Below, one piece after another: positions 39,008 to 53,608 of a stretch of 64,000 nt of DNA. Source of the DNA: a virus; IMG/VR virus record IMGVR_UViG_3300037117_000143, positions 4,447-68,446 of that record; one strand, 5' to 3'. The stretch's first letter is position 1. The number at the start of each line of letters is the position of its first letter. The notes beneath the pieces are model-generated. The model was not told where the DNA came from. It searched no databases and saw nothing but the letters and a program-made list of their open reading frames with translations. Both the position numbers and the translations under genes were made by a program.

Positions 39008-39405
39008 TCTCTCCAGGTCTGTTCTCTTATTACGTGGGATATCGTTTGGCAGGAAACACCAAACTCAACCGCTAGCCGCGGCCCACTACCACGTATATAG
39101 CAACTTCTTATAGTCCGAACGTTGTCTTTTGTGAGCTTATTGACACGTCGGTTTTGGCTTTGGGTAGATGGCGTAGCCCACCGACAATTGGCTTTGCAAT
39201 AGTTTTGGTCGTTCTTTTCCCGCTCAAGAGACCAACCTTTGCCAGGGTGCGGACCCATATCCGCAGCGAAGACAGCGAAGTCATCCCACTCGGGGCATAT
39301 CGTAATGCCACGACCTCCGTAATTTGGCCATTCTGGGTTATTCAAATTAAAGCAACGTGCGCGCATGCCCGCCCACGCCGTGTACAGACGCGTGACTCGG
39401 GGCAT
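39004..39405 (-). CDS. HNH-related homing endonuclease with C-terminal HTH
   Basis: AWAGMRARC, YGGRGITIC.EW, NCRWAT; paralogue of 36242 and 40488. Confidence 0.85.
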   Translation of the reverse strand: MPRVTRLYTAWAGMRARCFNLNNPEWPNYGGRGITICPEWDDFAVFAADMGPHPGKGWSLEREKNDQNYCKANCRWATPSTQSQNRRVNKLTKDNVRTIRSCYIRGSGPRLAVEFGVSCQTISHVIREQTWRD

Positions 39406-41389: not shown

Positions 41390-41742
41390 CAGTCCAACCT
41401 GATGATCTTTAAACCAAGCGCTTCAGCTGTTGCCTTCTCAGCGCAAGCGCCCTTGCTGTTCTCGAAACCCGGCAGTAGGGCAACGCCCTCGGCGTGAAGG
41501 CAAATATATTCCAGGTCTTCAGCAAGGGCAACGCGAAGGCTGAACCCGTATGCATACCGGGCTATCTCTTCGCTTCCCGTCGCATTGCCTTTTGAGATAT
41601 CCGTACCGTGGCGCTCCATGTCCTTTTCGGCCGGACTGAAAACAGTATGCCCCTCGGCACGCAGCTTCTTCGCTGCAGCATGAAACGCCGGGAAATTGAA
41701 CTCGGGGATGCCCCGCATTGGTCCTGCCAAGTATAATCTCAT
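41389..41742 (-). CDS. DUF4406 / nucleoside 2-deoxyribosyltransferase-like protein
   Basis: YLAGPMRGIPEFNFPAF, SPAE, LLPGFENSKGA.AE...A..LG. Confidence 0.88.
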   Translation of the reverse strand: MRLYLAGPMRGIPEFNFPAFHAAAKKLRAEGHTVFSPAEKDMERHGTDISKGNATGSEEIARYAYGFSLRVALAEDLEYICLHAEGVALLPGFENSKGACAEKATAEALGLKIIRLD

Positions 41743-41957
41743 TTTGCATTCCTCTTCGGGCCGGGGCGGCCCAGCTTCTCTTCCAGCGCGTTTCTGATAT
41801 CCGCTGCTAAACAGGGCATACTACTATCCTCAAGAGCGACGTAGGCTCTATAGAGCAGCTTCTCCAGACGGCGCGTTCGCCGGCGCCACTTATCGGTGGC
41901 GTTAGCCGCTCGTTGTTTCACACCCTCTTCGAACAGCTGGCCGGCGAACGGGATCAT
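41739..41957 (-). CDS. Hypothetical protein
   Basis: ATGA-coupled on both sides. Confidence 0.6.
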   Translation of the reverse strand: MIPFAGQLFEEGVKQRAANATDKWRRRTRRLEKLLYRAYVALEDSSMPCLAADIRNALEEKLGRPGPKRNAK

Positions 41958-42223
41958 TGTGCTGCTCTCAGTTTCTCTATGACCTGATTTACGTTTTCCT
42001 GCACGATGATGGTGCCGCCGCCTACGCTAACTATTGTGCCGTTTGGATAACCTAACTGTCCCGCGCCTTGCACCGTGTTCAGGTTCGCTGGATTGATATA
42101 CACCAGATGCCCATCGAGCCGCTTCAGCGAGACGAGTTTTATTGATCCCGCGAGGACGATCGTCGTCATGCACAAACTTATTGCGCAAACTATCCCAACG
42201 TGAACCAGTTTTGATTTCAGCAT
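41954..42223 (-). CDS. FlbD-like small beta protein, possibly with a signal peptide
   Basis: LVSLKRLDG..VYINP......TIV..GG..IIVQE.V.QV..KL. Confidence 0.55.
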   Translation of the reverse strand: MLKSKLVHVGIVCAISLCMTTIVLAGSIKLVSLKRLDGHLVYINPANLNTVQGAGQLGYPNGTIVSVGGGTIIVQENVNQVIEKLRAAQ

Positions 42224-42521
42224 TCGTAGCCTTCTTATCCAATAACTTACCAATTCGATTGGTCGCTTTCGCTCTCGTCTCGGTCTGTCGCGTATCCGTC
42301 AGCTCCGCGATCACTTCCAGGTCCCGCGGCGTAAGCGGATACAGCTTGCGCGTGAGCGGCTCGTGCGCGTTCAGCGAGGACAAGGCGGAGCTTGGTCTCG
42401 ATAAGACGCTCGCGGGCATAGCGCGCACGATCGAAGGGGATAGGGACGTTAAAGCCGACGAAGGACATGGTGACCAGTTCTTTCTCAGGAGGAAGTCTGG
42501 GATTGTCTCGGACTCTTCCAT
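42027..42521 (-). CDS. Hypothetical protein with N-terminal IPDFL motif
   Basis: ORF in operon orientation; 3' end overlaps the FlbD-like gene. Confidence 0.5.
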   Translation of the reverse strand: MEESETIPDFLLRKNWSPCPSSALTSLSPSIVRAMPASVLSRPSSALSSLNAHEPLTRKLYPLTPRDLEVIAELTDTRQTETRAKATNRIGKLLDKKATNAEIKTGSRWDSLRNKFVHDDDRPRGINKTRLAEAARWASGVYQSSEPEHGARRGTVRLSKRHNS

Positions 42522-42617
42522 TTCTTGTTCTTTCGATGTGCTCGTTTCAATAGCCAGCCGGCACCCGTTACTCGAACGACGTAGATGTAGTCCTCGTCAA
42601 ACCAGGACATCCAATAT

Positions 42618-42764
42618 TCAGGGACGAGCATTGACGTGCGACTCCGACGGAGACATCGGGAAATGCTTAGGCGAGCACGCTGCCACAAAGAAAGCGCACG
42701 CGGCTATGACGCAGAACGCTGTGGACATGATCGCAAGCCCGGCTCTCCATCGTTCTTCGTTCAT
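42618..42764 (-). CDS. 48-aa lipoprotein (not in ORF track)
   Basis: MNEERWRAGLAIMSTAFCVIAACAFFVAA-C lipobox; SD GGAGA; starts right after the PolA stop. Confidence 0.5.
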   Translation of the reverse strand: MNEERWRAGLAIMSTAFCVIAACAFFVAACSPKHFPMSPSESHVNARP

Positions 42765-43700
42765 TTAGCAATCTCCATAGCTTTGTCCTGAGGATACATC
42801 AGCTTTCAACGGAAGGTCCGGTGCCCAGGAAGGTCGCATGACCATCTGGGAATGTATAATCACTTTCGCGTGATCTACATATTTGTCGGGGACGACCATC
42901 AAGAGTTCATCATGGATTTGATGCGCCATGCGCAGAAACGGAATCTTGGTTGCCTGCAGGCGCAACGCCGTGTTCATTAAGACAATGCGTGACAGAAACT
43001 GGGATACGTTTTCCAAGCATGCAGCACCATATATCTTTCGCGGCCGGCCGCCGTAATCGTACCATAACTCGCCATCTTCGGTTTGCCGTGGGTCGCCGTA
43101 CAACATACGCAAACTGCCGGGCCCTTCAATGCACCCGCGGCTAATCGTGATGGGGCCAATTGTCGCAGGGGGGGCTAATCCAAGCCACTCGCGCTTCAGG
43201 TGCTTGTCAAGCAGGTACCAGAATTGCACCGTGGCGGCGTTAAACTTGCGGTAAATCTTAACGGTCTTTTGGGCCAGCTCAGGCGTCCACATTTCGCCAA
43301 GGGCAAGCCCCTGCGTGCGTGCGGCCATACCCGCCTTAATGTAGAAATTATCGGGGCCAAGGCCGTATTGGAGGCCAAGGACTGCCGTCTTACCCACCCA
43401 CCGTTCCAACGTGTTCGCTTTCGTTACCGGAAATCCGAAGATTTCGCTGGCCATGACACAATACGGGTCGCCATTGTCGACGAAGACCTGCAGGAGGGCG
43501 CTCTGAGACAGCCAGGCGACCATCCTGGCCTCTATTTGCGCTAGATCGCAGGATACCACCTTATGGCCCGGAGGCGCTTCTAAGGCCCCTCTGAGCTCGC
43601 CGCCACGGGGTAAGTTCTGGAAGTTGCATTTCCATTCACCTGATAACCTATGAGTGTGTGCACCGGCATAGCGCAGGGCGATCGGCATTAGGTTGGCCAT
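42765..43700 (-). CDS. polA: DNA polymerase family A, polymerase domain (C-terminal part)
   Basis: THRLSG, NFQNLP, motif A DLAQIEAR, motif B R..GK...LGLQYG, motif C QIHDEL. Confidence 0.92.
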   Translation of the reverse strand: MANLMPIALRYAGAHTHRLSGEWKCNFQNLPRGGELRGALEAPPGHKVVSCDLAQIEARMVAWLSQSALLQVFVDNGDPYCVMASEIFGFPVTKANTLERWVGKTAVLGLQYGLGPDNFYIKAGMAARTQGLALGEMWTPELAQKTVKIYRKFNAATVQFWYLLDKHLKREWLGLAPPATIGPITISRGCIEGPGSLRMLYGDPRQTEDGELWYDYGGRPRKIYGAACLENVSQFLSRIVLMNTALRLQATKIPFLRMAHQIHDELLMVVPDKYVDHAKVIIHSQMVMRPSWAPDLPLKADVSSGQSYGDC

Positions 43701-44596
43701 GATAGCCCCGCAATCGCTAAAAGGCGCTCCGTTCGGCTCTCTTCCAGCGTAGACTTCAATCCAATTCTTGCGGCCGCCAGGCTTTGCACGCGAGGGTTTT
43801 CATGCTCTAGCAAATCAACCATGAATTGATCTGATTTTGCCAGGGCTGGAATGGTATTGCCCGTGTTCGATACCTTTGTCTCGATTTCCACGCCTTCGGC
43901 CACGAGCAGGGCGGCAAATTGAGTAGCGGACATTAGCTGGGGCTTCTCAACGCTAGCCCCCCGCAGCAACGCTTCTTTGGCGGCGCACACGTTCTCTAGG
44001 TGCGCCGTGAGCTTGGGAATGTTCATGGTGAGCCTTGGTTCCACTGCACATCTAAGCACCAAGTCCATTACCCGATACTCGGCTTTCGGGAACGATGGCG
44101 CTAGCTTATTGAAAACGCCCTTGAGCAGGCGCACATCTTGTGCGGCATATTCACAAAAGGACGGAAACAGGCCAGCAGCGATTATGTCGGCGCGCCGCAT
44201 GCCAATGACGCTGCGGATCGTGTCGCCTTTGTCGCCGAGCTCCAGATGCTTTGCAACGCTTTCAAGGCTCAATCGTCTGAGTTTGTGGCCCAATAGAGCG
44301 CGAGCCATACCAAGCCCGTCGACCATACGACTCGGCACCCAACCAAAACGCCAAGCCAGAATGCAATTGTCGAATAGGGCGTTGAAAGTAAGGCTGATGC
44401 AATCAGCAGGGTCGTGCTGACTAAGCCAATCACGAAATTTAGGCCCATCAACGTTTTGAACGGGGCCAGCGTCAATTTGGGTCGCGCAGCAAATTGTTTC
44501 ATAGCGTTCATCCAGTATGTATTGCGCCGGCGTCATTTTGCGCAGGCTGTATTCCTTGTCGTAGTACGTTTCGAAGTCGAGTGTGATCAGCTTCAT
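43688..44596 (-). CDS. polA: DNA polymerase family A, 3'-5' exonuclease and thumb (N-terminal part)
   Basis: ExoI LDFETYY, ExoII FNALFD, ExoIII YAAQDV, ARIGLKSTLEESR. Confidence 0.88.
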   Translation of the reverse strand: MKLITLDFETYYDKEYSLRKMTPAQYILDERYETICCATQIDAGPVQNVDGPKFRDWLSQHDPADCISLTFNALFDNCILAWRFGWVPSRMVDGLGMARALLGHKLRRLSLESVAKHLELGDKGDTIRSVIGMRRADIIAAGLFPSFCEYAAQDVRLLKGVFNKLAPSFPKAEYRVMDLVLRCAVEPRLTMNIPKLTAHLENVCAAKEALLRGASVEKPQLMSATQFAALLVAEGVEIETKVSNTGNTIPALAKSDQFMVDLLEHENPRVQSLAAARIGLKSTLEESRTERLLAIAGLSWPT

Positions 44597-45099
44597 AGGA
44601 AGAAAACCGCCACGTCCCGCCAGGGTGCATCAATTTCAATGTTGTAATTTGGGTAGCCCACGTTGTGGTTGTAGGGTGGCTTGATCATTGAATAGCGCTT
44701 AACTTCACAGCCGTACAGCCATCCGCGGAAGTAGACTGCACGCTCGGGCACATTAAACCACGCATGCACATAGATATGATCAAGGCCCTCAATTAGATGC
44801 GGCACTTTTATCAGCATAGGCCACACGCCATTGGGTCGCGTCTTCACATCTATAGTAGAGCCATCATAGCGGAAGTCGATCCCCATATCACCCTTGCGAC
44901 GTAAGGTGCGGTCCATCAACCAGCCGGTTGGCTTCTCAAACGCTCGCTCACCTATGGCACCAAGCACGTGCTCACTGTTTAAGTTAGCCTGCGTTCGCGC
45001 CGAGTCGCGGTCAGTCACAGGATGCCCCGTCTGCCGCGCCACGCCAATGATCGTAGCCTCTTCATATTCTTCCTTTGCGAGGGGCACAATCCGCATCAT
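44593..45099 (-). CDS. PD-(D/E)XK nuclease-like protein
   Basis: GAIGE.AF, GD.GIDF, TIDVKTR, RGWL. Confidence 0.65.
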   Translation of the reverse strand: MMRIVPLAKEEYEEATIIGVARQTGHPVTDRDSARTQANLNSEHVLGAIGERAFEKPTGWLMDRTLRRKGDMGIDFRYDGSTIDVKTRPNGVWPMLIKVPHLIEGLDHIYVHAWFNVPERAVYFRGWLYGCEVKRYSMIKPPYNHNVGYPNYNIEIDAPWRDVAVFFL

Positions 45100-45695
45100 A
45101 ACGAGTATCTACCTCCTATAAGCGCCACCACCTCCTTAACAGATAAATCCAGCCCTTTGCAAAATAATTTCTTTGGTGGCTTGTTAATCCGCGTGTAACC
45201 CAGCGCTTGAAGCTTTTCACGACTCTTTGTCTTATGCCGGCGGTACATGACAGGCGACGAATAGCGCACGCCCTCACGTTCCCAATAGTCTGTAATGCGG
45301 CTTTCACCTAGATATTTGAAGCGTGCCGCTTGGTAGACAGCACCGTGATTTGGTTTGCCGTTGTAGATGTTCGATGGGTCAGTATAGCTAAACACGCACG
45401 GGCAATTCGGATCATTCTCGCGTAGCCACTGCAGCGAAGCCTTCAAGAAAACACTCAGCGGGCCGTCCGCCTGCCGACGGGCACGGCGCGCATCCGATTG
45501 CCATAACCTAATTAATTCGAGGCAGCCGGGTAACTTAACCTTAAAATGCTGCGGTATAGGCGGCGAGTATACGGCAAGCGCGTCGAGCTGTTCCGTAGTT
45601 AAACAAAACTTTGGATGGTAGCCGATGCGACCTAAATAATGCTCGTGCTCAAGGAGCTTGTCAGCTTCCCCCTTTTTGATGGTGATTATTTTCAT
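45096..45695 (-). CDS. Mom-family (GNAT-fold) DNA modification protein
   Basis: HYLG, LELIRLW, S.FL..SL.WL, VFSYTDP, HGAVYQAA.F.YLG, KKLF. Confidence 0.75.
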   Translation of the reverse strand: MKIITIKKGEADKLLEHEHYLGRIGYHPKFCLTTEQLDALAVYSPPIPQHFKVKLPGCLELIRLWQSDARRARRQADGPLSVFLKASLQWLRENDPNCPCVFSYTDPSNIYNGKPNHGAVYQAARFKYLGESRITDYWEREGVRYSSPVMYRRHKTKSREKLQALGYTRINKPPKKLFCKGLDLSVKEVVALIGGRYSL

Positions 45696-45958
45696 GCGCC
45701 GGCTTTCAACTTATACCGTGCCAACGCCTGCAGGGCGACCTGATCGCCGTTCGCCTGCAACGACCGCTTTCGACGCGGGTGGTCGACCTGCTCCTTGATG
45801 CGTGCGCTGTACCGCGCTATGTGTCGCTGTATGCGACGCACGTGCGATTTCTCATGGCGCGCCTCACGCTTATAGGCGATATTGGCGCCGCTCTTCGTAT
45901 TGCGGCCGTGCTTTCGCCCCTTCTTGGTCTTCTTAGCTTTTTGCTGTGCTTCTGCCAT
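45692..45958 (-). CDS. Basic hypothetical protein
   Basis: K/R-rich; coupled to the mom-like gene. Confidence 0.6.
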   Translation of the reverse strand: MAEAQQKAKKTKKGRKHGRNTKSGANIAYKREARHEKSHVRRIQRHIARYSARIKEQVDHPRRKRSLQANGDQVALQALARYKLKAGA

Positions 45959-45959
45959 A

Positions 45960-46235
45960 TCACACCCTACTCACTGAACCCCAAGCCTCCAACGATATGC
46001 GGCGTGCGTCATAATGACCGACGCTTCCGATCTCAGAGCCAAGCTTGACGCGAGTATTCTTTCCGCGTGCGCTGTCCTTCCAGCTCCAATCCATATCTGC
46101 TTGCGTGCATGCGCCGCACAAGCCTTGCCGTATGTGCGCTAGGCCGCGGGCGTACGCATGCGGATCACTGCGATCGAACTCGGCATAGCGCTGCAGCCCG
46201 GCCAGCATGTACGGCTCAATCTGTTCAAGCTTCAT
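45960..46235 (-). CDS. Hypothetical protein
   Basis: ATGA-coupled ORF. Confidence 0.5.
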   Translation of the reverse strand: MKLEQIEPYMLAGLQRYAEFDRSDPHAYARGLAHIRQGLCGACTQADMDWSWKDSARGKNTRVKLGSEIGSVGHYDARRISLEAWGSVSRV

Positions 46236-46611
46236 CGCTTAGCCTTTCCGCGAGCATGTACGAAATTGAAATCGCGGCTGTGCAGACCGCATTCCCGGGT
46301 AAGATAACGGCGCCTTGAAGCAGAAACTTTGTCTTTGTTGCTGAAAGTTGAAGTAGCCTTTTCGCGCTCCCTGATGGTTTGGACCTGTGCTTCCAACCTA
46401 TCTTTGTTGGCTTCAAAGAAGCGCAAAGCGCGCTTAGCTATTTCTAGCGCGTGTTCCCGCGAATCGCTTTCAAAGCAAAAATACGGAGCAACCCCCGTAG
46501 CGGCAAGCCACCGGCCGGGGCTGACTTCCTTATTATAGATAAACACGTCTTTCATCGCGGCCTCCCCCTCGATTTCCGATAAGCGGCGTGCATCATAATG
46601 ACCGACGCTTC
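45993..46611. repeat. 35-bp direct repeat (45993-46027 and 46577-46611)
   Basis: CGATA[TA]GCGGCGTGC[GA]TCATAATGACCGACGCTTC, 2 mismatches. Confidence 0.85.
46232..46555 (-). CDS. HicB-like fold protein (putative)
   Basis: SD GGGGAGG; GRWLAAT..AP.FCFESDSREHALEIAKRAL. Confidence 0.5.
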   Translation of the reverse strand: MKDVFIYNKEVSPGRWLAATGVAPYFCFESDSREHALEIAKRALRFFEANKDRLEAQVQTIREREKATSTFSNKDKVSASRRRYLTRECGLHSRDFNFVHARGKAKR

Positions 46612-46754
46612 GCGTAGTCAACCAGCGCACGGTACACTGCCGGCTCAAGGTATATGCGTTGATTGTTGCTGTCGCCCGTACGCAGGCATAGCTGGTAGCC
46701 ATCGTGCGACACGTACACGGCATCGCCGAGGTATGTTTCGTTTTCAGCCTTCAT
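46593..46754 (-). CDS. Small conserved phage protein
   Basis: SD AGGAGG; YLGDAVYV..DGYQL.LRT....IYLEP.V. Confidence 0.7.
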   Translation of the reverse strand: MKAENETYLGDAVYVSHDGYQLCLRTGDSNNQRIYLEPAVYRALVDYAKRRSL

Positions 46755-46916
46755 CGCTTTCGCCTCCTGTAGCGCCTCTGAACCACACTGGTCTACGCGT
46801 CGCGCTTCCGCGCCGAATTCGAGGATGCCGCCGGCTATGGCTGGAATGTTTCGCATTCGACATGAGGATTAGCACGTTCGCGAAAATAAGTGCAACAAGA
46901 ATAATCACCCCGGTGA

Positions 46917-47447
46917 TCATATGTCCTCTCCGTCTATCGTGCGCGCATCTTCGCGTGTCTTGTCCCGAATGAGCTCTTCGCGGCTATAAGGTTCCGCGCT
47001 TTCGTCGTGCGTACGCTTGCCAAACGTTCGCGGCGCCGCAGGAAATATATCCACATTCTCCTGCTGGTATAGTTCGTGCTCTGGCACGCCGTCTGTGAGC
47101 CAATCAAGGCTTGGGCCGTTGTCGCGCTTGCCCGGCTTCACCCGCTGGCGTGTGCCGTGCGCCTTGCGACTGGGGAAGTGCGCGTCACTATGGCATTGTC
47201 GGCAACGTAGCTCACATTTCTTTAGCTCTTTAATCAGGCGAGCTTTGCTGTGCGTCAAACGGCTTTGCACACAAAATTCTCTCACTGTGCCCGGCTTATG
47301 GTGGAACTCCAAACGTTTCCGCGTTGTGCCACACCCAACACATGCGCCACCAAGTAGGGCGATAGCCCACGCACGCCGTTGCTTACGATAGGCGCGTTGA
47401 TACAACCTATTTTGCAATGGCGTGCGCGCCATGGTTCTAGTGCGCAT
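46917..47447 (-). CDS. HNH endonuclease
   Basis: LGGACVGCG, LEFHH, ELKKCELRCRQCH. Confidence 0.8.
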   Translation of the reverse strand: MRTRTMARTPLQNRLYQRAYRKQRRAWAIALLGGACVGCGTTRKRLEFHHKPGTVREFCVQSRLTHSKARLIKELKKCELRCRQCHSDAHFPSRKAHGTRQRVKPGKRDNGPSLDWLTDGVPEHELYQQENVDIFPAAPRTFGKRTHDESAEPYSREELIRDKTREDARTIDGEDI

Positions 47448-48072
47448 GATAGGCGACCTGTTTCACGTCCCGGTTCCAGCATGCGCGGCAATCTTTGCAT
47501 TCGTTGTCTTGTTGCTGCGCCGGGCATGCATGCGCGCTCTTATCCGGCTTTGTATGCTTCCAGACAACGCTTGTCAGTGGCCACGCTTTCGTTGCAGGTC
47601 CGTCAATCATGGTGCCGCTAACCCGTATCGCAAGGTTATCAGGAACAATACCGCCGGTTTTGACGTAGGCTTGCACAAAACCGAGCTCTTTCGTCGGTAG
47701 CCAATGGCGCACGCGAGGCGTCAACTTGCACACTGCGACAATCTTCGCTAGATGCCATGCGCCTTGCAAATCGCCCGAATCGAACCACCTGAAAACGTTT
47801 TGACCCCCGCGCAAAATAAGAACGGCCATTGCGCTAGGCCATTGCGGCGCTTCTAGCGCGGCCATATGATTGGCGTGCGATTTCTTTACGCTTGGATATT
47901 GATAGTTTCCGCGATCAAGGGCATAGCATACGCTGCACACACTACCTTTTATTTTGGCTAACTTTCCGCCCGTGATGCAATCGCTAGCAGATATAGAATA
48001 CGATTGGCCCGGCATTTTGCTCACCTGGCCTAATCCGCCGCCTGTTAGCTTCTTGGCCTCACCGATATTCAT
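47437..48072 (-). CDS. Gp88-like (radical-SAM-related) phage protein
   Basis: SKMPG, C..G..L....GSVC..CYA, FRWFDSGD, HWLPTKE, NL.IRVS, CPA.....C..CRACW. Confidence 0.8.
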   Translation of the reverse strand: MNIGEAKKLTGGGLGQVSKMPGQSYSISASDCITGGKLAKIKGSVCSVCYALDRGNYQYPSVKKSHANHMAALEAPQWPSAMAVLILRGGQNVFRWFDSGDLQGAWHLAKIVAVCKLTPRVRHWLPTKELGFVQAYVKTGGIVPDNLAIRVSGTMIDGPATKAWPLTSVVWKHTKPDKSAHACPAQQQDNECKDCRACWNRDVKQVAYHAH

Positions 48073-48185
48073 GTGCTCTCGCTTTCGTTGTTTGAAAAAA
48101 GACTAGGCGCATTCGCGGCAAAACGCAATCCGTTGCCATACCACTTAGGACCATTGCCCGTTTGCACTTCCGGTTTCCAAGACAT
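48069..48185 (-). CDS. 38-aa early protein (not in ORF track)
   Basis: SD AAGGAAG; MSWKPEVQTGNGPKWYGNGLRFA...; ATGA overlap with the gp88-like gene. Confidence 0.55.
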   Translation of the reverse strand: MSWKPEVQTGNGPKWYGNGLRFAANAPSLFSNNESEST

Positions 48186-48205
48186 AGCTTCACTTCCTTG
48201 TTTGC

Positions 48206-48254
48206 GGCGTGATTGCCGAACCTGCGCCCGTTAAGGCGCAAGCGCTGCGATCAA
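48206..48254 (-). ncRNA. Early-operon structured RNA motif, copy 1
   Basis: UUGAUCGC-AGC-GCUUGCGCCU(UAAC)GGGCGCAGGU-UCG-GCAAUCA-CGCC. Confidence 0.7.
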
Positions 48255-48273
48255 AGCGACAATTCCATAAACA

Positions 48274-48483
48274 TCATGATAACCCCCGACATTGGCGCAG
48301 CACGCTCTCACACTCTTGGAGCAGATCGGCGGACACTTGCCCTAGGGCGCGTTCCGCCAAGAGCTCTTGTTCTAGCGCGGCAACGTAGGCGATGCTAGGA
48401 AGCTCTCTGATAACATGCCGCATCTTGTGCGCTGTTGCGCGTGCGCGTTCTTGTCGTTTCGTTTGCAGGTCAATTATAGTCAT
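48274..48483 (-). CDS. Hypothetical early protein
   Basis: SD AAGGA. Confidence 0.6.
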   Translation of the reverse strand: MTIIDLQTKRQERARATAHKMRHVIRELPSIAYVAALEQELLAERALGQVSADLLQECESVLRQCRGLS

Positions 48484-48495
48484 GGCGTGTTTTCC

Positions 48496-48729
48496 TTATG
48501 CTTTCGTTGCACAGTTTATTCCGCTTTTGTCACCGCTGGCAAGTTTCTTCGTGCGCGCGCGTTCACAAAAATAGCCTGCCATCCATGAGGCAAGCAATTC
48601 ACTTTCGCCCCAGCCGCACGAGCGCGCAACTTGTTCAACGTTGGCACGATCGGCCGGGCGATTATTGCGCCAATAGGCGATGCCGGCTTGGTGTGCCGCG
48701 ATCATGTTTGTTTCTTGTTCGTTCGTCAT
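48496..48729 (-). CDS. Hypothetical early protein
   Basis: SD GAGGAGCAAAT after motif copy 2. Confidence 0.7.
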   Translation of the reverse strand: MTNEQETNMIAAHQAGIAYWRNNRPADRANVEQVARSCGWGESELLASWMAGYFCERARTKKLASGDKSGINCATKA

Positions 48730-48751
48730 AGCGTTATTTGCTCCTCAGTCT

Positions 48752-48805
48752 GGCATGATTGCCGACAATGGCGCGAATCGCACGCACGCCATTAGCTGCA
48801 ATCAA
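48752..48805 (-). ncRNA. Early-operon structured RNA motif, copy 2
   Basis: UUGAUUGC-AGC-UAAUGGCGUG(loop)CGCGCCAUUG-UCG-GCAAUCA-UGCC. Confidence 0.7.
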
Positions 48806-49095
48806 ATCGGGGCTACAATCAATCTACGGTCAATCATGTCGCGGCCGCATTGGATGGCGCTTTTCCAATAGATAGCCCAATGCAGGGCTAGCGCGTGCGC
48901 TGTAGCGCCTTCTATTGTCTCGTGCTTGGTATTGTCCATGCCCCCGTCATGCCTCCAAGCGACCACCCTGCATTCAGCCGGCCGCTTAGTCGGCAGGGGC
49001 GCCGCAGGCGGTTCAATGGGCGGAATAGTGTCCGCCAATATCGGTGCGAACGGAATTTCATCCCACGCGATTTTAGCACGCGTTTTTGTAGGCAT
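48802..49095 (-). CDS. Hypothetical early protein
   Basis: ATG at 49095 after AGGAGCAAATAAG. Confidence 0.65.
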   Translation of the reverse strand: MPTKTRAKIAWDEIPFAPILADTIPPIEPPAAPLPTKRPAECRVVAWRHDGGMDNTKHETIEGATAHALALHWAIYWKSAIQCGRDMIDRRLIVAPI

Positions 49096-49111
49096 CTTAT
49101 TTGCTCCTAGC

Positions 49112-49168
49112 GGCAGGATTGCCGACAATGCCCCGTGGCAACGTGCTACGGGGCATCAGCTGCAATTA
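49112..49168 (-). ncRNA. Early-operon structured RNA motif, copy 3
   Basis: UAAUUGC-AGC-UGAUGCCCCGU...ACGGGGCAUUG-UCG-GCAAUC-CUGCC. Confidence 0.7.
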
Positions 49169-50182
49169 CGCTGCAACACGGTCCTTAATCATCGGCATCA
49201 ACAAGCCTAGCGCCTTGTCCTTGAGCGCCGCGCCGGAACCAAAGAGGCGGTTTTCAGTATTGCCAGCATCACGATCATGGTCAACATAGCGCGTGATCGC
49301 CTGAAGCGCGGTAAAGGCATCAATGTTCGCAGCGCCACCCGTGAACTTTATCGCCCGCTCGTTGCACGAGGTTGAAAGCGCATCGATAATCGATTGACGC
49401 TGATTTTTTTTGCGCGTCGAAACGTCTTTTTGTTCAGCGTCAATTGGAATATCCAGAACGCCGCGAATGAACGCGGAGAGCGCTTCCTTAGGCATAATGA
49501 AGCCGGCCAAAGCATCGCCGATTTGCTTGTACTGCGCGAAGCCGGCCGCAATCGATGCAAGGGCTTTCATCGCCTTTGCAGCGTCGAACTTGGTGGAATG
49601 GCGCACGTTGATTTTGGGCGCGTCCTCACCCATGGCGACATTGATTGTATTCTGACAAACAACGCATTCCATGCATGATTGTAGGCGCGTAGGGCTTGTC
49701 GTGTTGAACGTAGTGGAAGCTAGTAGGCGCACCTTGTGCGCCGATCCGCCGATGGTTTGTTCACCTGCAAAAGTGGCCTGTGCCCATATGCGTTTTCCGC
49801 CATCAAGGCTCCCCATAGTCGTCATGGTGAAACGCGGATCGATCTCGATCAATTCCCATAGTGCATTTTGCGCGTCAACCGGTTGCACCAAATTGTAGCG
49901 CGTGGAAACAAGGCCAAGCCCCGCGCCGGTATCTTCCCGGGCATTTACGAAACGATCCGGATAGTCGCGCAGCGCGCCCGTAGCGTCGCGGTAGTGCACG
50001 GGAGTGGCGCTAACAGTGAAGCTTGACCCAGCGGCTTCGCTCCACTCTTCCCGCGTCAGCGGCCGGCCAAGGCGCGCCACGATATCGTCAACCGATTGGC
50101 CAGTACCGTGCCAGATTTTTGAACGTGGGCCGACGAAAGCAAGGGCGACAAAGCCCAAGGTCTCGTCAAGATTTGCAGACAT
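49166..50182 (-). CDS. DUF932/DUF945 family protein
   Basis: WHGTG, LGLVS.RY..VQP, GSLDGGKRIW, VVCQNT, RHS, A.QAIT.YVDH; SD AGGAG. Confidence 0.85.
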   Translation of the reverse strand: MSANLDETLGFVALAFVGPRSKIWHGTGQSVDDIVARLGRPLTREEWSEAAGSSFTVSATPVHYRDATGALRDYPDRFVNAREDTGAGLGLVSTRYNLVQPVDAQNALWELIEIDPRFTMTTMGSLDGGKRIWAQATFAGEQTIGGSAHKVRLLASTTFNTTSPTRLQSCMECVVCQNTINVAMGEDAPKINVRHSTKFDAAKAMKALASIAAGFAQYKQIGDALAGFIMPKEALSAFIRGVLDIPIDAEQKDVSTRKKNQRQSIIDALSTSCNERAIKFTGGAANIDAFTALQAITRYVDHDRDAGNTENRLFGSGAALKDKALGLLMPMIKDRVAA

Positions 50183-50265
50183 AATATTTGCTCCTAGGTG
50201 AGAGTTTTTAGGGGCGGTGACCGCCGTTCTAGGTCACATTAGGCTCAAACGAAAGCACCCCTAGC

Positions 50266-50314
50266 GGCATGATTGCCGAACCTGCGCCCGCTAGGGCGCA
50301 AGCGCTGCAATCAA
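50266..50314 (-). ncRNA. Early-operon structured RNA motif, copy 4
   Basis: UUGAUUGC-AGC-GCUUGCGCCC(UAGC)GGGCGCAGGU-UCG-GCAAUCA-UGCC. Confidence 0.7.
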
Positions 50315-50484
50315 TCCTCAAAACGGTCGCGGGACAGGTAGCGTGTGAAGTATTCATCGACGGCGAGGGGTTCCGGATATTGCGGCGCCACGACATGCAA
50401 GGTGGCGGCGGTGCGGGCGATTTCGCGTCTAGCGTGGTCTCGATGACCGGCATAAGCGGCTAGCTGCAGCAGTGGGGTAAGCAT
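50311..50484 (-). CDS. 57-aa early protein (not in ORF track)
   Basis: SD AAGGA; MLTPLLQLAAYAGH...RDRFED*; stop lies inside motif copy 4. Confidence 0.55.
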   Translation of the reverse strand: MLTPLLQLAAYAGHRDHARREIARTAATLHVVAPQYPEPLAVDEYFTRYLSRDRFED

Positions 50485-50520
50485 GTGATATTCCTTTTGG
50501 TTGGCGGTTTCTATGGATTG

Positions 50521-50549
50521 AATGTGCGCCCGATCGCAAAACGTTTCAA
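50521..50549 (-). promoter_or_regulatory. Sigma70-type early promoter
   Basis: TTGAAA-N17-CACATT. Confidence 0.5.
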
Positions 50550-50579
50550 GCTAAATCTTTTGTGATTTGTGGTGATGGT

Positions 50580-50762
50580 TTACAACGTGTTAACGTATCG
50601 GGCATCTGGTCCCCAGTACTCAGGGGGTGGCGCTAGAACGCGGCGCTTATCCTGTGGCGGGAATTGCCCGCCCCAGCGATTCATGTATGCCTTGTGCTCT
50701 GCCTTGGCGGTATTGGCCGCGGCGCGCCCGTGCTTAAATTCAATCCATTCTAAATGTGTCAT
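50580..50762 (-). CDS. Hypothetical early protein
   Basis: ORF in operon orientation with GGA SD. Confidence 0.5.
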   Translation of the reverse strand: MTHLEWIEFKHGRAAANTAKAEHKAYMNRWGGQFPPQDKRRVLAPPPEYWGPDARYVNTL

Positions 50763-50794
50763 GACAACTTGTTTCCATCTTCGCTAGGCGGCAG

Positions 50795-50978
50795 CAGGGC
50801 TTTGATGGCCGCGTCTAGGTTGGGGTCTGCAGGCTCAGGTATGACCGTGGCAACGTGCTCAGAGGGCATTGCGGCAACGTTGGCCACAGGGCTTTGATGG
50901 CCGCGTCTAGGTTGGGGTCTGCAGGCTCAGGTATGACCGTGGCAACGTGCTCAGAGGGCATTGCGGCAACGTTGGCCA
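50795..50978. repeat. Perfect 92-bp tandem duplication
   Basis: 50795-50886 is identical to 50887-50978. Confidence 0.92.
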
Positions 50979-51312
50979 ATACAGCGGCCGGTAGCGGTAC
51001 GCTCTCTACAGTCTCAAGGATGGTCGCAATAGACGCGGCAACAGCAGGGGTGAGCTTAGCCTCGTGCCTGGCGCGTTCAATCCGATTTAGAGTGTCAATA
51101 GTGGGGTCGCCGGTCAATACGATTGGCTTGTCTAGTGCGCCTCGTTCGGCCTGCCTCTTACGATTTAGCATGATGTCCAGGCGACGCTCGACTTGTATTA
51201 TTTGTCCGCCTATTTTAAACCAAGGACCATAAGCCTTGTCGTTTGTGTAGCGAGCTTGTTCCTTCTTTAGTGCGGCGATCTTCTCTCGGCATTGATCGAT
51301 GCTTCTTGCCAT
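50815..51312 (-). CDS. First leftward early gene (C-terminus frameshifted by the 92-bp duplication)
   Basis: SD AAAGGG; downstream of a strong promoter. Confidence 0.65.
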   Translation of the reverse strand: MARSIDQCREKIAALKKEQARYTNDKAYGPWFKIGGQIIQVERRLDIMLNRKRQAERGALDKPIVLTGDPTIDTLNRIERARHEAKLTPAVAASIATILETVESVPLPAAVLANVAAMPSEHVATVIPEPADPNLDAAIKALWPTLPQCPLSTLPRSYLSLQTPT

Positions 51313-52108
51313 TTTGTAACCCTTTCACGGTTCAAATTATCTTATAATTATTTTATTATAGCTGTCAAGGGGTCATAATCCAGGGGGAGCAAAGATAATG
51401 GGATAATCAAAACGAGCGGAAAACGTCAATGGTGGCAACGTGTTATAAGGGTCGCCCTCAAAAGTCAGCTAGAAATAAGACTTCTATAATATACTATACA
51501 TGAGAAAAAGTGGAACGTCCCCCTGGGGCTTCATGCATCCTTACGAGGCCGTGAGCACGTTGCCACGTGAGCCCCCGTGAAAGTCTGTTATACATTAGAA
51601 TCCGGTCGGATTATGCCGATTTGACCCCCTTTTGGCACGTTTTCCCCTTTAAAACCTCATAATCCATATTTATTGCTATATAGCGGATTATGCTACATAA
51701 TGTCGCAGGTAATCCTAATAATGGAATCTAATAAATCTAATAACGGTGCGACCTTTAGCCGCAGGCAGCTCGCATACCGTGACAAGGCACGTTAACCCGT
51801 TGATATCAATGCGACATTTAGCCGCGCCTGTGGCAACGTGCCACTCGAGTTAACTATAGTGCGATCACGGTTTTGTGATTTGACTTAAAGAAGTTCAATG
51901 AAATCAGGGATTTAGATGGTTAACGGGTGTGGGGTGGCACCGTGTTAGGGTTAACCGGGTGGATGCCTGGCCCGGCGGCACGGCACAACTTTTGCAAGAA
52001 AGCAGGAGGTACGCACACCTAGGTTGTATTTTTGGAGTGTTAAGGTTTTCTTTACTGATTTGGCCCAAAACCTTGACTACCACGGTAGAACGGTGATACG
52101 GTAGCCTC
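51313..52108. other. About 800-bp AT-richer non-coding divergent control region (origin or genome-end candidate)
   Basis: No credible ORF; strand switch; repeated ATAAT, GTTAAC and GTGGCAACGTG elements. Confidence 0.6.
51339..51368 (-). promoter_or_regulatory. Sigma70-type early promoter
   Basis: TTGACA-N18-TAAGAT (or N16-TATAAG), AT-rich spacer. Confidence 0.65.
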
Positions 52109-52405
52109 ATGACGCGGAAGCTGACGTTCGACGAGATCAACCGACCCTACGCCGTCTACCGGCTCTTCGACGAAGCCGGCACCCTGCTCTATATCGGGTG
52201 CTCCCACAATCCCCCAGGAAAAAGGTTCCCGACCCACCGAAAAAAATCCTGGGCGGCCGAGATTGATTGGGATAAGTTAAAGCTCGAGTGGTTCGCGAAC
52301 TGGTCGCTGGCCACCCTGGGAGAGTACTACGCCATCGCCACGGAAGACCCAAAATACAACTGCCAGCACACGCTGGTCTACGGCAGAGTAGGAGCCTACA
52401 AATGA
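52109..52405 (+). CDS. GIY-YIG nuclease-domain protein
   Basis: AVYRLFD..G.LLYIG.S, R...H, E..AI..E.PKYN. Confidence 0.85.
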   Translation: MTRKLTFDEINRPYAVYRLFDEAGTLLYIGCSHNPPGKRFPTHRKKSWAAEIDWDKLKLEWFANWSLATLGEYYAIATEDPKYNCQHTLVYGRVGAYK

Positions 52406-52497
52406 TCGAGTTCATCGTTGTGCTGGTTATCGGGTGGGCTATCTACGTCCTGTTGCCGATTGCCATGAGCGGCCTCTTCGCAAAGAAAAAGCCTTGA
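52402..52497 (+). CDS. 31-aa membrane peptide
   Basis: SD AGGAG; MIEFIVVLVIGWAIYVLLPIAMSGLFAKKKP. Confidence 0.55.
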   Translation: MIEFIVVLVIGWAIYVLLPIAMSGLFAKKKP

Positions 52498-52523
52498 CGG
52501 GTGCCACCGTGCCACGGTATACG
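52494..52523 (+). promoter_or_regulatory. Sigma70-type promoter with GTGCCAC repeats in the spacer
   Basis: TTGACG-ggtgccaccgtgccacgg-TATACG. Confidence 0.55.
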
Positions 52524-52559
52524 CGATCGGCGAAGTGCGTATAAACGAGGACCATCCCC

Positions 52560-52751
52560 ATGGCCAAACCAGGTAAGCGCAAGTTCCCCCTCTGCGACGT
52601 CTGGGCGAAGGACATCCTAGCACCGTATCGCCGTGGGGGCTACGAGGCAAAATATAACCAGCTCGAGCAGGCGATCTACGAAGCGCTGGTGGAAGCGTGC
52701 CAACGTGGCACCCCGCTGCCGTTCGGTTATGTCGAAGCAGGGCCGGCCTGA
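52560..52751 (+). CDS. Hypothetical protein
   Basis: SD GAGGA; TGATG-coupled to the next gene. Confidence 0.6.
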   Translation: MAKPGKRKFPLCDVWAKDILAPYRRGGYEAKYNQLEQAIYEALVEACQRGTPLPFGYVEAGPA

Positions 52752-53608
52752 TGACCCCCCGAAAAATCCTGATTTGTGGTTTGCCTGGCAGTGGCAAGAC
52801 CACGCTGGCAAAATCGCTAGCACCGCTGATCAACGCCGTGCACTATGACGGCGACGAAGTTCGCTCCGTGACCCTCAACGACGACTTCAGCGTGGCTGGT
52901 CGCGCCAAACAGGTCGTCGACATGCGATGGTTGTGTGACAAGGTGAGAGCCGCGGGGCAGAACGTGATCGCCAGTTTTATTTGCCCGACTGCCGCTCTTC
53001 GCGAGGTCTTCGCTGCGGACTACACTATCCTCATGGACACCTCTCCCGACATTAAATACGCCGACACCAGGGTGATGTGGGAATATCCCAGCGATCCGGA
53101 CTGGACCGTTAGAGGGTTCGGAACGAGCACCGATTCGATCTCGTCCGTTGACATGATCGTTGCAGACTTGAACAAGCCAGCACCTTCCCCGTACGCGTGG
53201 AACAACGAAGCGCCAACAGGTTTGGTTCTTGGCAGGTTCCAGCCGTTCCATGCCGGGCATAAGGCGCTCGTCGATGAAGCGTTGAAGCGCTACCCGCAGG
53301 TGATGATCTGTGTTCGGTCCATGCCGGTATCTGACAAGAATCCATACACCTCGTTGCAGGCCCGCAACTTCATTTGGGAGTCCGTAGGTGATTACGGTGA
53401 CCGCGTGCGCGTGTTGCCTATGCCAAACATCGCCTCGGTCCTCTATGGCCGGGATGTCGGCTACAAGATCGAACGGGTGCACCTTGACACGGAGACAGAA
53501 TTGATATCCGCTACCGAGATACGAGGGCGGTACGGTCAGAATTCTATTCCGTCGGTCATCAAGGACTTCAATATGGATGACCCGCTACCAGAGGAACTGT
53601 ATCCATGA
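52751..53608 (+). CDS. cysC: Adenylyl-sulfate (APS) kinase fused to a HIGH-family nucleotidyltransferase
   Basis: GLPGSGKTT, DGDEVR, DFS..GR..Q, IASFICP, WEYP; then LGRFQPFHAGH and ISATEIR. Confidence 0.8.
   Translation: MTPRKILICGLPGSGKTTLAKSLAPLINAVHYDGDEVRSVTLNDDFSVAGRAKQVVDMRWLCDKVRAAGQNVIASFICPTAALREVFAADYTILMDTSPDIKYADTRVMWEYPSDPDWTVRGFGTSTDSISSVDMIVADLNKPAPSPYAWNNEAPTGLVLGRFQPFHAGHKALVDEALKRYPQVMICVRSMPVSDKNPYTSLQARNFIWESVGDYGDRVRVLPMPNIASVLYGRDVGYKIERVHLDTETELISATEIRGRYGQNSIPSVIKDFNMDDPLPEELYP

Follow-up and report, generated by a model that had tools for sequence, protein, structure and literature searches.

The short hairpins that recur in the leftward gene cluster of this phage genome belong to a widespread family of intercistronic hairpins, found where small accessory genes are clustered in a range of soil and peat phages. 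The hairpin is approximately 55 bases long and occupies the interval from the stop codon of a small gene to the ribosome-binding site (RBS) of its downstream neighbour. An initial annotation of the window, the whole stretch of 64 000 nucleotides that was analysed and most of a 68-kb metagenome phage genome, had described four copies; the observation was confirmed and reaches far beyond these four. Clusters of small and mostly orphan genes are the sites of host takeover and counter-defence in phages and the least understood part of their genomes, and the hairpin is a covarying signal, defined by its sequence, at nearly every gene junction in such clusters. The hairpin provides a practical marker for accessory clusters in metagenomes, which the current model already finds, and a handle on operon expression, be it through processing, stabilization or coupling. 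It is also a testable candidate for a homology patch in the trade of accessory genes between unrelated phages. That its internal loop is invariant implies that something reads it, and this is probably a host factor.

Hairpin copies in the window

The window contains exactly four hairpin copies, all on the minus strand, which is the sense strand (Table 1). A search of the whole 68 446-bp record with the pattern GCAGC-N15–45-TCGGCAATC gave four matches, all on the reverse strand and at the sites where the annotation had placed them (48206, 48752, 49112 and 50266), and the reversed-pattern control gave none. With a stricter TTGCAGC pattern, three matches were obtained (0.02 expected); copy D (48206) reads TCGCAGC instead.

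Most features that had been attributed to the four copies were recovered, some of them in a narrower form. The proposed basal stem UGAUUGC/GCAAUCA is present with 7 bp in copies A (50266) and C (48752), but contains one C·A mismatch in copy D and only five contiguous base pairs in copy B (49112), in which the stop codon is TAA. The AGC/UCG element, described as invariant, occurs as AGC and (G or T)TCG in all four copies, but of its UCG side only N-C-G is kept in the wider family. Flanked by this element, an apical stem of at least 10 bp is present in every copy and comes in three versions, as claimed: those of A and D are identical, and B and C each differ. TGCC or CGCC (the YGCC of the annotation) follows the hairpin in 4/4 copies, each copy begins at a stop codon, and the seven-codon ORF with its TGATG overlap is as originally described. 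The shared RBS, AGGAGCAAAT, occurs four times in the window, three of them in the hairpin cluster, but is local to this phage and a close relative; at copy A, a second small hairpin separates the motif from this RBS.

Folding of single sequences gives only moderately convincing support for the hairpin, with z-scores of −2.50 and −2.20 for the two copies whose values are not listed in Table 1. The proof of the structure is the covariation among relatives described below.

Table 1. Hairpin copies, genes and signals of the leftward gene cluster, in order of transcription
Feature	Position	Strand	Details
Candidate promoter	51339–51368	−	Sigma-70-like TTGACA-18-TAAGAT, 10/12; best match upstream of the leftward gene cluster
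57-aa gene	50311–50484	−	Upstream of hairpin A; no family match
Hairpin A	50263–50315	−	cmsearch 54.5 bits, E 1.2e-13; fold −34.2 kcal/mol, z −3.28; first three stem nt are the stop TGA (50311–50313) of the 57-aa gene
Repeated RBS AGGAGCAAAT	50186–50195	−	Ahead of the DUF932 gene; ~68 nt past hairpin A
338-aa DUF932/phrog_1221 gene	49166–50182	−	Between hairpins A and B; PF06067, E 1.1e-28
Hairpin B	49109–49170	−	cmsearch 45.7 bits, E 5.5e-11; fold −32.8 kcal/mol; stem base holds the stop TAA (49166–49168) of the DUF932 gene; orthologous copy in the relative L124
Repeated RBS AGGAGCAAAT	49099–49108	−	Immediately past hairpin B
97-aa gene	48802–49095	−	Between hairpins B and C
Hairpin C	48749–48806	−	cmsearch 48.9 bits, E 6.1e-12; fold −23.1 kcal/mol, z −0.56; stem base holds the stop TGA (48802–48804) of the 97-aa gene
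Repeated RBS AGGAGCAAAT	48736–48745	−	Immediately past hairpin C
77-aa gene (48496–48729) and 69-aa gene (48274–48483)	48274–48729	−	Block between hairpins C and D
Mini-ORF MFMELSL	48251–48274	−	Start codon overlaps the 69-aa stop as TGATG; direct sequence reading
Hairpin D	48203–48255	−	cmsearch 43.1 bits, E 3.5e-10; fold −27.0 kcal/mol; basal stem TGATCGC/GCAATCA with one mismatch; stop TGA (48251–48253) closes just the seven-codon ORF
38-aa gene	48069–48185	−	After hairpin D; shortened form of a 74-aa gene in L124

In the region 47500–53000, ten promoter-like and seven terminator-like sites were found, none of which overlaps a hairpin copy, and no T run lies 3′ of the stem; judged by its sequence, the hairpin is neither a promoter nor an intrinsic terminator. 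Sigma-54 and sigma-70 promoters, a CRISPR-repeat mimic and a K-turn were dismissed on reading the sequence. Readthrough or bypass was likewise rejected, as the lengths of the hairpins are not divisible by three and each gene downstream is preceded by an RBS of its own. A search for RNA sequencing runs that contain the region found none. Genes for endonuclease VII and HNH proteins are numerous in the window.

Covariation, placement and distribution of the family

A covariance model (R1) was built from relatives and scanned against the retrieved loci and 11 whole records. It gave 101 matches, 90 of them distinct, in approximately 55 IMG/VR phage contigs; most of these copies had been found by a pattern fixing ATTGCAGC, CGGCAAT and GCCG. 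Read 5′ to 3′, the stop codon (usually UGA) supplies the first bases of a 6–8 bp basal stem, (U)GAUUGC/GCAAUC(A), which is followed by an invariant A·G mismatch and a G–C pair and then by a 2 × 2 internal loop. The apical stem above is of free sequence, 9–12 bp long in 77 of the 90 distinct copies and mostly capped by a tetraloop (4 nt in 40/90). An unpaired NGCC(G) tail leads to the Shine–Dalgarno sequence, and the start codon lies ∼20–25 nt after the stem. The full helix comprises ∼22 stacked positions, equivalent to two A-form turns.

The covariation that had been read from the four copies holds in shuffle tests across the family. Among 18 copies of equal length, 95.7% of cells are paired and 12 of the 18 pairs have changed on both sides; the observed values were not attained in 500 shuffles, apart from three shuffles that did so for the number of pairs with two-sided changes, and slid controls were 27–45% paired. 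For the 90 distinct copies, 96.4% of cells are paired and two-sided changes occur at 15 of the 18 pairs, with none of 500 shuffles as good. In the gene-sense reading there are 66 G·U versus 18 A·C cells, and the folding strand is thus that of the mRNA. Model scores are 40–75 bits on the sense strand compared with 19–32 bits on the opposite strand.

Residues G8, C9, A10 and G11 together with C72, G73, G74 and C75 (core GCAG…CGGC) are invariant in 90/90 distinct copies and the G-C-C of the 3′ tail is kept in 88–89, whereas the apical stem is free to vary. This invariance is partly circular, because the search pattern fixed these elements in most copies; in copies found by the model alone, the outer stem varies and GCAG, CGGC and GCC are retained. 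The persistence of GCAG/CGGC and the GCC(G) tail despite fully diverged apical stems points to a sequence-specific reader.

The placement of the motif follows the translation signals closely. An upstream ORF of at least 30 codons ends within 15 nt of the motif in 79 of 86 distinct copies; in 57 of the 86 its stop codon is the first three stem nucleotides (52 TGA and 5 TAA), and the TAA copies lose the base pair while retaining the stop. The next RBS-preceded start codon lies at a median of 17 nt past the model end (13–20 nt in 55/86). Co-oriented ORFs were found upstream in 79/86 copies and, under a permissive rule, downstream in 86/86. All examined copies sit in the sense orientation between co-oriented genes, none within a gene. 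Only a few of seven examined copies that lack a long upstream ORF have an in-frame start before the stop of the motif; such mini-ORFs are exceptional, and coupling through them is unsupported as a general feature of the family.

Copies form same-strand clusters, with 12 in 8.3–16.1 kb of contig G006, ∼11 in 6.0–12.4 kb of G007 and seven in 91.8–95.8 kb of G008. The phages that carry them differ in tail type and have almost no proteins in common: in a comparison of five motif-bearing genomes (BLASTP E 1e-5, naive ORF calls), no protein was found in at least four of the five, and only DNA polymerase and helicase clusters reached three. In one loose pattern scan of viral contigs, all 119 loci among the matches listed were chance by the fold filter, and a second yielded a handful of true copies among the matches listed. 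A scan of bacterial genome contigs gave at least 120 matches; of the 120 listed, 22 passed the fold filter and one was a true copy (L420, a MAG); 150 further genomes of the class of this MAG gave none, at the low sensitivity of 37 candidates scored per genome. Cultured phages gave no blastn match to window positions 47000–51500, and tblastn with the DUF932 protein returned relatives all below 30% identity. The rhizobial T7-like phages TRX32-1 and Lo5R7ANS, reached through tblastn with a flanking GP88 protein, contain no copy over their whole length with filters off (best E 0.16); their early gaps carry other strong hairpins. No copy lies near the ArdC homologues of three plasmids (one of Bradyrhizobium CB82 and two of Microvirga VF16).

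Approximately 110 of 134 flanking proteins scanned have no Pfam match, and 104 of 138 flanking genes have no homologue beside a motif in another contig. The families recognized include DUF932, ArdC and pentapeptide repeat; the labels 'early' and 'anti-host' given to these genes in the initial annotation rest on position and on these few families.

The annotation had also proposed that the hairpins mark cassette boundaries, and boundaries of gene gain, loss and replacement do coincide with them, both in a 78% relative (L124) and in contigs from other metagenomes. L124 is without the block comprising the 77-aa gene, the 69-aa gene, the mini-ORF and hairpin D, with the junction at the RBS, and an unrelated hairpin replaces its hairpin A. 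Contigs from two further metagenome runs skip or replace the 97-aa gene between B and C (joint 48767–49113). Among contigs of four other runs from peat metagenomes, five of 20 joint ends lie within 10 nt of a copy, against ∼1 expected. Near-identical apical stems occur in five of 88 within-contig pairs compared with 11 of 3828 between-contig pairs; in L273, L328 and L360, adjacent copies of this kind have a single gene between them, and in the window a block of 2 kb is enclosed by copies A and D. A breakpoint test on one related pair among the retrieved loci was negative, with two of 19 alignment ends at the motif versus 1.4 expected. In phages, gene junctions are in any case where indel boundaries would be expected to fall.

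Possible roles of the hairpin

The interpretation in the initial annotation, of RNase III-type processing sites, a protein-bound translational operator and/or cassette boundaries, is supported in part. We tentatively favor, with rather less than even confidence, an intercistronic element for mRNA processing, stability or insulation, of RNase III-substrate size, that would also serve as a recombination linker for cassettes. The hairpin would split a long transcript into units whose stability and translation are independent of one another. It would be cut or bound by an RNase III-type double-strand-specific endonuclease or by a different host factor, one that recognizes the invariant internal loop. 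The hairpin would then serve the cistron before it as a 3′ stabilizer and keep the RBS after it unstructured regardless of the upstream gene. As a secondary effect, the conserved arms, since they are present at numerous gene junctions and in phages that are unrelated, could act as homology patches for the gain, loss and exchange of cassettes. Cleavage or stabilization, the host factor and early timing are all presumed here.

The succession of a 7-bp base, A·G mismatch, G–C pair, 2 × 2 loop and an apical stem that is mostly 9–12 bp has the size and shape of an RNase III substrate. According to a review (PMC3867540), the ideal Escherichia coli substrate has 22 bp in two A-helical turns, internal loops lead to single-strand cleavage and the cut leaves a stabilizing 3′ hairpin. 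Size and shape fit such a substrate, but they would fit other readings too. RNase III needs no fixed sequence, yet the core and tail are invariant, and processing leaves the stop codon inside the stem unexplained. As the motif is nearly absent from the host genomes scanned, a dedicated host partner is not evident.

Translational coupling or ribosome sensing is a possible but on balance unlikely explanation. A ribosome terminating at the stem-base UGA would melt the lower stem, and the compact hairpin would bring the stop near to the next RBS, so that downstream translation is tied to upstream translation or reinitiated; the freed 3′-arm CGGC and the GCCG tail could also form a small hairpin of their own as an alternative. 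The stop within the first stem nucleotides, the tight start distance and the retention of the stop where TAA costs a base pair all agree with this, as does copy D, where the TGATG-coupled seven-codon ORF brings ribosomes to the stop of the motif. CGGC and GCCG are complementary and both conserved, but their pairing lacks covariation because neither side ever varies, and a fifth pair, A–U, is available in only 46/90 copies. The hairpin leaves the RBS unsequestered in all four folds and access therefore needs no coupling. Furthermore, a conserved UGA would serve as a stop anyway, since ORFs extend to the first stop, and in-frame mini-ORFs are rare where a long upstream ORF is missing.

Less probable is a primarily DNA-level recombination linker, similar to the PeSL cassettes discussed below (PMC2839356), in which the arms are kept for safe intergenic exchange, possibly via circular intermediates. 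The same ∼25 conserved bases are found in phages of different tail types with almost no common proteins, which requires horizontal spread. The indel and replacement boundaries, the single genes and the 2-kb block between near-identical copies and the mostly orphan flanking genes would all follow, and recombination proteins are encoded in motif-bearing contigs (RecT in G006, Sak4 in G007 and exonuclease VIII in G004). However, homology for recombination needs no pairing, whereas compensatory changes keep the pairing and G·U pairs are acceptable on one strand only. Selection for recombinogenicity is second-order and would hardly fix single bases, the strict co-orientation with genes and the fixed stop and start distances point to an RNA role, and the sole systematic breakpoint test was negative.

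We give less weight again to the reading that the hairpin is the operator, or a decoy, of an RNA-binding protein with sequence specificity, which would recognize the A·G/G–C/internal-loop core and the GCC(G) tail. The binder could be a translational repressor, an endoribonuclease of phage or host origin that is not RNase III, or a host defence protein titrated by the phage. An invariant core and tail with a free apical stem is the usual signature of a protein-recognized hairpin, and known or suspected counter-defence families (ArdC, pentapeptide repeat, DUF932) flank the motif. On the other hand, the search pattern itself accounts for part of the invariance, the bacterial genomes searched almost entirely lack the motif and the protein comparison gave no candidate common to the motif phages, although small divergent proteins would escape it.

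It is distinctly unlikely that the hairpin is the junction signal of an integron-like cassette network among unrelated soil phages that works without an integron integrase. The site, folded as RNA or single-stranded DNA and read by a host factor, would then set both the expression of each small counter-defence gene and the point of its excision, circularization and insertion.

A selfish palindromic mobile element (MITE- or REP-like) without function for the phage is very improbable. The many copies per genome, the inverted-repeat build, the near-identical copies within a genome and the occurrence in unrelated phages are as expected of one, but the copies are uniformly sense-oriented at fixed distances between co-oriented genes, no transposase or target-site duplication is seen where L124 lacks copy A, and the apical stem evolves by compensatory changes, which indicates long-term selection on pairing. 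Hardly credible is a double-stranded DNA operator or cruciform, with the conserved inverted half-sites TGATTGC/GCAATCA bound by a dimeric regulator or the structure acting as a replication or priming signal. The conserved half-sites and the many endonuclease VII and HNH genes of the window speak for it, but the half-sites are a variable 33–53 nt apart, the spacer itself pairs and covaries, the G·U excess lets only one strand fold well and placement tracks translation signals.

Comparison with known systems

The hairpin matched no described family in covariance searches of Rfam 15: the whole window at the gathering threshold gave only a tRNA (32963–33032), and the region 47900–50600 at E values up to 10 gave three weak chance matches, none on a hairpin copy. 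A text search of the literature found no description of the motif; no paper contains a 14-mer of the 3′ arm, and a 10-mer is found only in papers that seem unrelated, judged by title. In the searchable tables of a catalogue of 10 006 candidate viral RNAs (PMC10690425), neither the motif nor any of four contig numbers from the present set appears; the catalogue may contain the hairpin. The family seems to be undescribed so far.

REP/BIME elements, which are likewise intercistronic hairpins and rich in GC, shield the mRNA upstream of them against 3′ exonucleases; they are chromosomal, host-specific and linked to RAYT transposases. Liang, Rudd and Deutscher reportedly found in 2015 that a REP with a stop codon within ∼15 nt can affect translation of the upstream gene. 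In contrast to REPs, with their many host copies, the present motif is phage-borne and nearly absent from the bacterial genomes searched (one true copy among the matches listed in the first scan, and none in the low-sensitivity second). The attC sites of integrons are structure-defined recombination sites with a conserved paired base, an unpaired centre and a variable top, which lie at the 3′ end of promoterless cassettes, often overlap the stop codon and are active as one strand. The paired base, variable top and stop-codon overlap resemble the present hairpin. Neither strand of the motif consensus contains the attC core sites, RYYYAAC and GTTRRRY, and no integron integrase was found among 48 window proteins scanned, all from outside the plus-strand structural half.

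The SAS/ESAS elements of Cluster K mycobacteriophages resemble the hairpin in occurring in one orientation just upstream of some non-structural start codons; their function is given as unknown and is thought to be translational (PMC3203893). As described there, ESAS are 17-bp imperfect inverted repeats with a 4–13 bp spacer, followed by the 13-bp SAS GGGATAGGAGCCC and confined to one phage cluster. Compared directly with that description, the present hairpin differs in sequence and geometry: its conserved arms are 7–8 bp, its 30–50 nt spacer pairs and covaries, it has no SAS and it occurs in unrelated phages.

The promoter-early stem-loop (PeSL) cassettes of the T4-type phages RB49 and phi1 are closer in genomic setting. 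According to PMC2839356, they carry a stem-loop with G–T pairs, are concentrated among orphan genes of variable regions and sit at boundaries of insertion, deletion and replacement. The orphan genes and indel boundaries are shared by the present family. What defines a PeSL, however, is the presence in AT-rich DNA of a strong sigma-70-like promoter together with a terminator stem-loop (PMC2839356), whereas the present copies overlap neither kind of site, conserve the stem base and internal loop and lie inside a predicted operon.

In form, the nearest counterparts are the five RNase III signals of the T7 early polycistronic mRNA, which, according to PMC3867540, are hairpins of about two turns with an internal loop, placed between non-structural cistrons with several per operon. 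Cleavage at the T7 sites leaves a stabilizing 3′ hairpin (PMC3867540), while the present hairpins are known from sequence. No T7-type RNA polymerase was recognizable in the part of the proteins covered from the phages examined. The T7 signals belong to one lineage, whereas the present family, compared here by form, is found in many unrelated phages and is set apart by its invariant core and 3′ tail and by the stop codon within its stem.

Setting of the hairpin cluster

The window covers positions 4447-68446 of an IMG/VR virus record of 68,446 bp that bears direct terminal repeats, and its G+C content is 56%. Genes run rightward up to ~31 kb, and a long leftward block extends from ~52.6 to 31.2 kb, opening with small unassigned ORFs followed by HNH endonucleases, a split family-A DNA polymerase, a helicase and a primase. 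The hairpin cluster lies near the beginning of this block, a position that suggests that the hairpin-bearing genes are early. Endonuclease genes recur in the replication block (region 35400-47450), and the polymerase occupies two adjacent ORFs. Within a 1000-residue primase/polymerase-like ORF lies a tRNA-like element (50.6 bits for Rfam tRNA; typed by ARAGORN as tRNA-???, its anticodon being the two bases 'tc'), and the PHROG match of the ORF spans the element unbroken. One copy of a perfect 92-bp tandem duplication is missing in contigs of two other metagenome runs (joint 50794-50887).

The four hairpins of the initial annotation were found at their sites and are the only matches in the whole record, all on the reverse strand; the reversed control pattern gave none in the same 68,446 bp. 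All four fold into the shape described, with modest single-sequence z-scores. Copies A and D have the same apical stem and B and C one each, giving the three versions reported, and the stop codon at each copy, the YGCC tail, the shared RBS AGGAGCAAAT at three sites and the 7-codon ORF with its TGATG overlap with the upstream stop likewise agree with that description. At copy A this RBS lies ~68 nt beyond the hairpin, past a second small hairpin that makes the junction with the DUF932 gene ~60 nt longer than the others. Rfam gave no match to the copies, even at E up to 10, and no promoter-like or terminator-like site overlaps any copy in the window.

Coordinates of features in the window
Feature	Position	Strand	Fold (kcal/mol)	z-score	Remarks
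Hairpin A	50263-50315	minus	-34.2	-3.28	
Hairpin B	49109-49170	minus	-32.8	-2.50	
Hairpin C	48749-48806	minus	-23.1	-0.56	
Hairpin D	48203-48255	minus	-27.0	-2.20	
Second small hairpin	50217-50237	minus			GTGACC...GGTCAC; between hairpin A and DUF932 RBS
Candidate promoter	51368-51339	minus			TTGACA-18-TAAGAT; top sigma-70-like match of the region, upstream of the hairpin cluster
Tandem duplication	50795-50978				2.0 copies, 100% matches; within 165-aa ORF 50815-51312
38-aa gene	48069-48185				after hairpin D
DNA polymerase ORFs	42765-43700, 43688-44596				family A
HNH and endonuclease VII genes	35420-35848, 36242-36682, 39004-39480, 40488-40940, 46917-47447				
tRNA-like element	32960-33032	minus			within ORF 31161-34163

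Structure and extent of the family

Two loose pattern scans of IMG/VR gave mostly chance matches, with a few true relatives bearing new apical stems among the matches listed. The stricter pattern ATTGCAGC-N15-45-CGGCAAT-NNN-GCCG returned 112 IMG/VR loci, and a covariance model (R1) was built from an ungapped alignment (A2) of 18 equal-length copies with a hand-written structure. At E up to 0.01, R1 gave 180 matches in 100 sources, including weak opposite-strand echoes and sites that fit the pattern but form no hairpin. The stricter limit of 1e-8 left 101 matches in 66 sources, with 90 distinct copies in ~55 contig groups. Copies cluster on one strand in the whole records G006 (65.5 kb; 12 copies at 8.3-16.1 kb), G007 (46 kb; ~11 at 6.0-12.4 kb) and G008 (110 kb; seven at 91.8-95.8 kb).

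Across the 18 founding copies, pairing holds in 95.7% of cells, compared with 27-45% in a slid-partner control, and 12 of the 18 pairs change on both sides; none of 500 shuffles was as good, except for three in the count of pairs changed on both sides. For the 90 distinct copies, the alignment of which was fitted to R1 and is biased in favour of pairing, the values are 96.4% (control 25-49%) and 15 of 18, equalled by none of 500 shuffles. The whole helix (base, internal loop and apical stem) spans ~22 positions, with an apical stem of 9-12 pairs in 77 of the 90 and a 4-nt loop in 40. Residues G8, C9, A10, G11, C72, G73, G74 and C75 are invariant and the G-C-C tail is kept in 88-89 of 90 copies, much of this invariance being imposed by the stricter search pattern; copies found by R1 alone retain GCAG, CGGC and GCC while their outer stem varies (TGATCGC, GAAATGC, GGCGATC). 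Across the family, the UCG originally taken as invariant holds only as N-C-G: at position 71, 39 copies have T, 31 have A, 11 have C and nine have G. Read in the gene sense, the alignment holds 66 G.U cells versus 18 A.C cells, and R1 scores 40-75 bits on this strand versus 19-32 bits on the opposite strand at the same sites; the mRNA-sense strand is therefore the one that folds.

The motif is a real, widespread phage RNA element of a known general kind, and is apparently new to the literature. A text search found no description of it, and the readable tables of a 2023 catalogue of 10,006 candidate viral RNAs (PMC10690425) contain neither the motif nor four of its contig numbers, although the alignment archives outside those tables could hold it unnamed.

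Five motif-bearing genomes have almost no proteins in common (BLASTP, E 1e-5, naive ORF calls), the clusters found in three of the five being DNA polymerase and helicase only. By its PHROG matches, G004 resembles a podovirus (internal virion protein), whereas G007 has a baseplate wedge and hub and G006 a tape-measure protein. Among 134 copy-flanking proteins ~110 have no Pfam match; the families present include DUF932 (five, one only at its cut-off), GP88 (five), DUF7192 (two) and, once each, ArdC, pentapeptide-repeat with DUF5758, DUF2786 with DUF7168, DUF6011, AAA ATPase and UvrD helicase. For 104 of 138 derived flanking proteins no homologue adjoins a motif on another contig.

The motif is scarce in bacterial genomes: among the 120 matches listed there is one true copy, 3' of ardC in an island rich in IS elements within an alphaproteobacterial MAG (G011, contig 68; L512 1-6000); its ArdC is 73% identical to that of a Bradyrhizobium plasmid. 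The island also carries a truncated resolvase, DDE and rve transposases and a TIR-domain gene. A low-sensitivity search of 150 further genomes of this class gave no copies, and none was found in three plasmids with ArdC homologues or two cultured rhizobial T7-like phages. In the cultured T7-like Mesorhizobium phage Lo5R7ANS (L517), early gaps 2552-2640, 4640-4737 and 5565-5690 contain strong hairpins of -41 to -52 kcal/mol, which are unrelated in sequence and may be intercistronic signals of a comparable but distinct set.

Gene exchange at the hairpins

The relative contig L124, whose DUF932 protein is 78% identical to that of the window, is mosaic with respect to it. Similarity ends exactly at the stop codon preceding copy A. 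L124 retains copies B and C, the latter with a new apical stem, and lacks the block comprising the 77-aa gene, the 69-aa gene, the mini-ORF and copy D, such that the RBS after copy C leads into the gene found downstream of copy D in the window. In the place of hairpin A, L124 (3918-3990) carries a TAG stop and a GC-rich hairpin of unrelated sequence, so that a hairpin occupies the position even without the motif. The 38-aa gene is a shorter version of a gene of 74 aa in L124 (5466-5710), ~190 nt being absent from the window, and differs by a further 30 nt in contigs of two runs (joint 48117-48148).

A survey of 46500-52500 in contigs from four other DNA runs (three peat and one permafrost, from four studies; a possible source run was excluded) yielded ten joints, which, given the 85% likeness used, probably derive from related phages rather than the same strain. 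The joint 48767 to 49113, found in two runs with sides of 85 and 94 nt, has one end within copy C and the other within copy B, with 28 other nucleotides in place of the 97-aa gene. Other ends fall at 50311 (5' edge of A), 48808 (5' edge of C) and 48741 (linker after C), and one more contig diverges exactly at 50311. Five of the 20 ends lie within 10 nt of a copy versus ~1 expected (intervals totalling 306 of 6,001 nt; simple binomial ~0.003, the ends being non-independent). The proposal that the hairpins bound gene cassettes is supported by these ends and by the L124 mosaic, but not by the single related pair among the fetched loci, in which alignment ends coincide with the motif in two of 19 cases versus 1.4 expected. 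Breakpoints at gene junctions are expected for any phage. With identical copies collapsed, near-identical apical stems are ~20 times commoner within contigs (5/88 pairs) than between them (11/3,828).

Function and relation to known systems

Of 86 distinct copies, 79 have an upstream ORF of 30 or more codons whose end is no more than 15 nt from the motif. The first three stem bases are the stop codon in 57 (52 TGA, five TAA); some others have TAG, TGA or TAA 1-6 nt farther upstream, and there the outer stem pair covaries (GAATTGC/GCAATTC, AGATTGC/GCAATCT). The next start codon with an RBS before it lies a median of 17 nt past the model end (13-20 nt in 55 of 86). Together with strand asymmetry and strict gene co-orientation, these fixed distances to the stop and start codons point to an mRNA element.

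We tentatively favour a role in mRNA processing, stabilization and insulation, with recombination linkage as a side effect. The motif is a two-turn internal-loop hairpin that would recur between cistrons of one operon, a build shared with the RNase III signals in the early mRNA of T7, which after cleavage retain a protective hairpin at the 3' end (PMC3867540). The invariance of core and tail implies a reader that recognizes the sequence itself, taken to be host-encoded since the motif-bearing phages have no common protein; this sits awkwardly with the searched host genomes, which do not use the motif.

Coupling of translation between neighbouring genes accounts better than processing for the stop codon within the stem, yet we consider it unlikely as the main role. 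A primary function as a PeSL-like recombination linker, to which the mosaic edges and joint ends are relevant, is rather less probable, and an operator or decoy for a protein, the former also suggested initially, is more doubtful again. A selfish palindrome is very improbable, and a DNA operator, set against the mRNA-sense character of the motif, scarcely credible.

Among known systems, integron attC sites are defined by core sites that are absent from the motif, and the ESAS repeats of Cluster K mycobacteriophages (PMC3203893) are unlike it in geometry and sequence. The promoter-early stem-loops (PeSLs) of T4-type phages (PMC2839356) are similarly distributed, but two of their defining features, a promoter and a terminator, are both missing from the motif. 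The T7 RNase III signal would be the closest to it in working.
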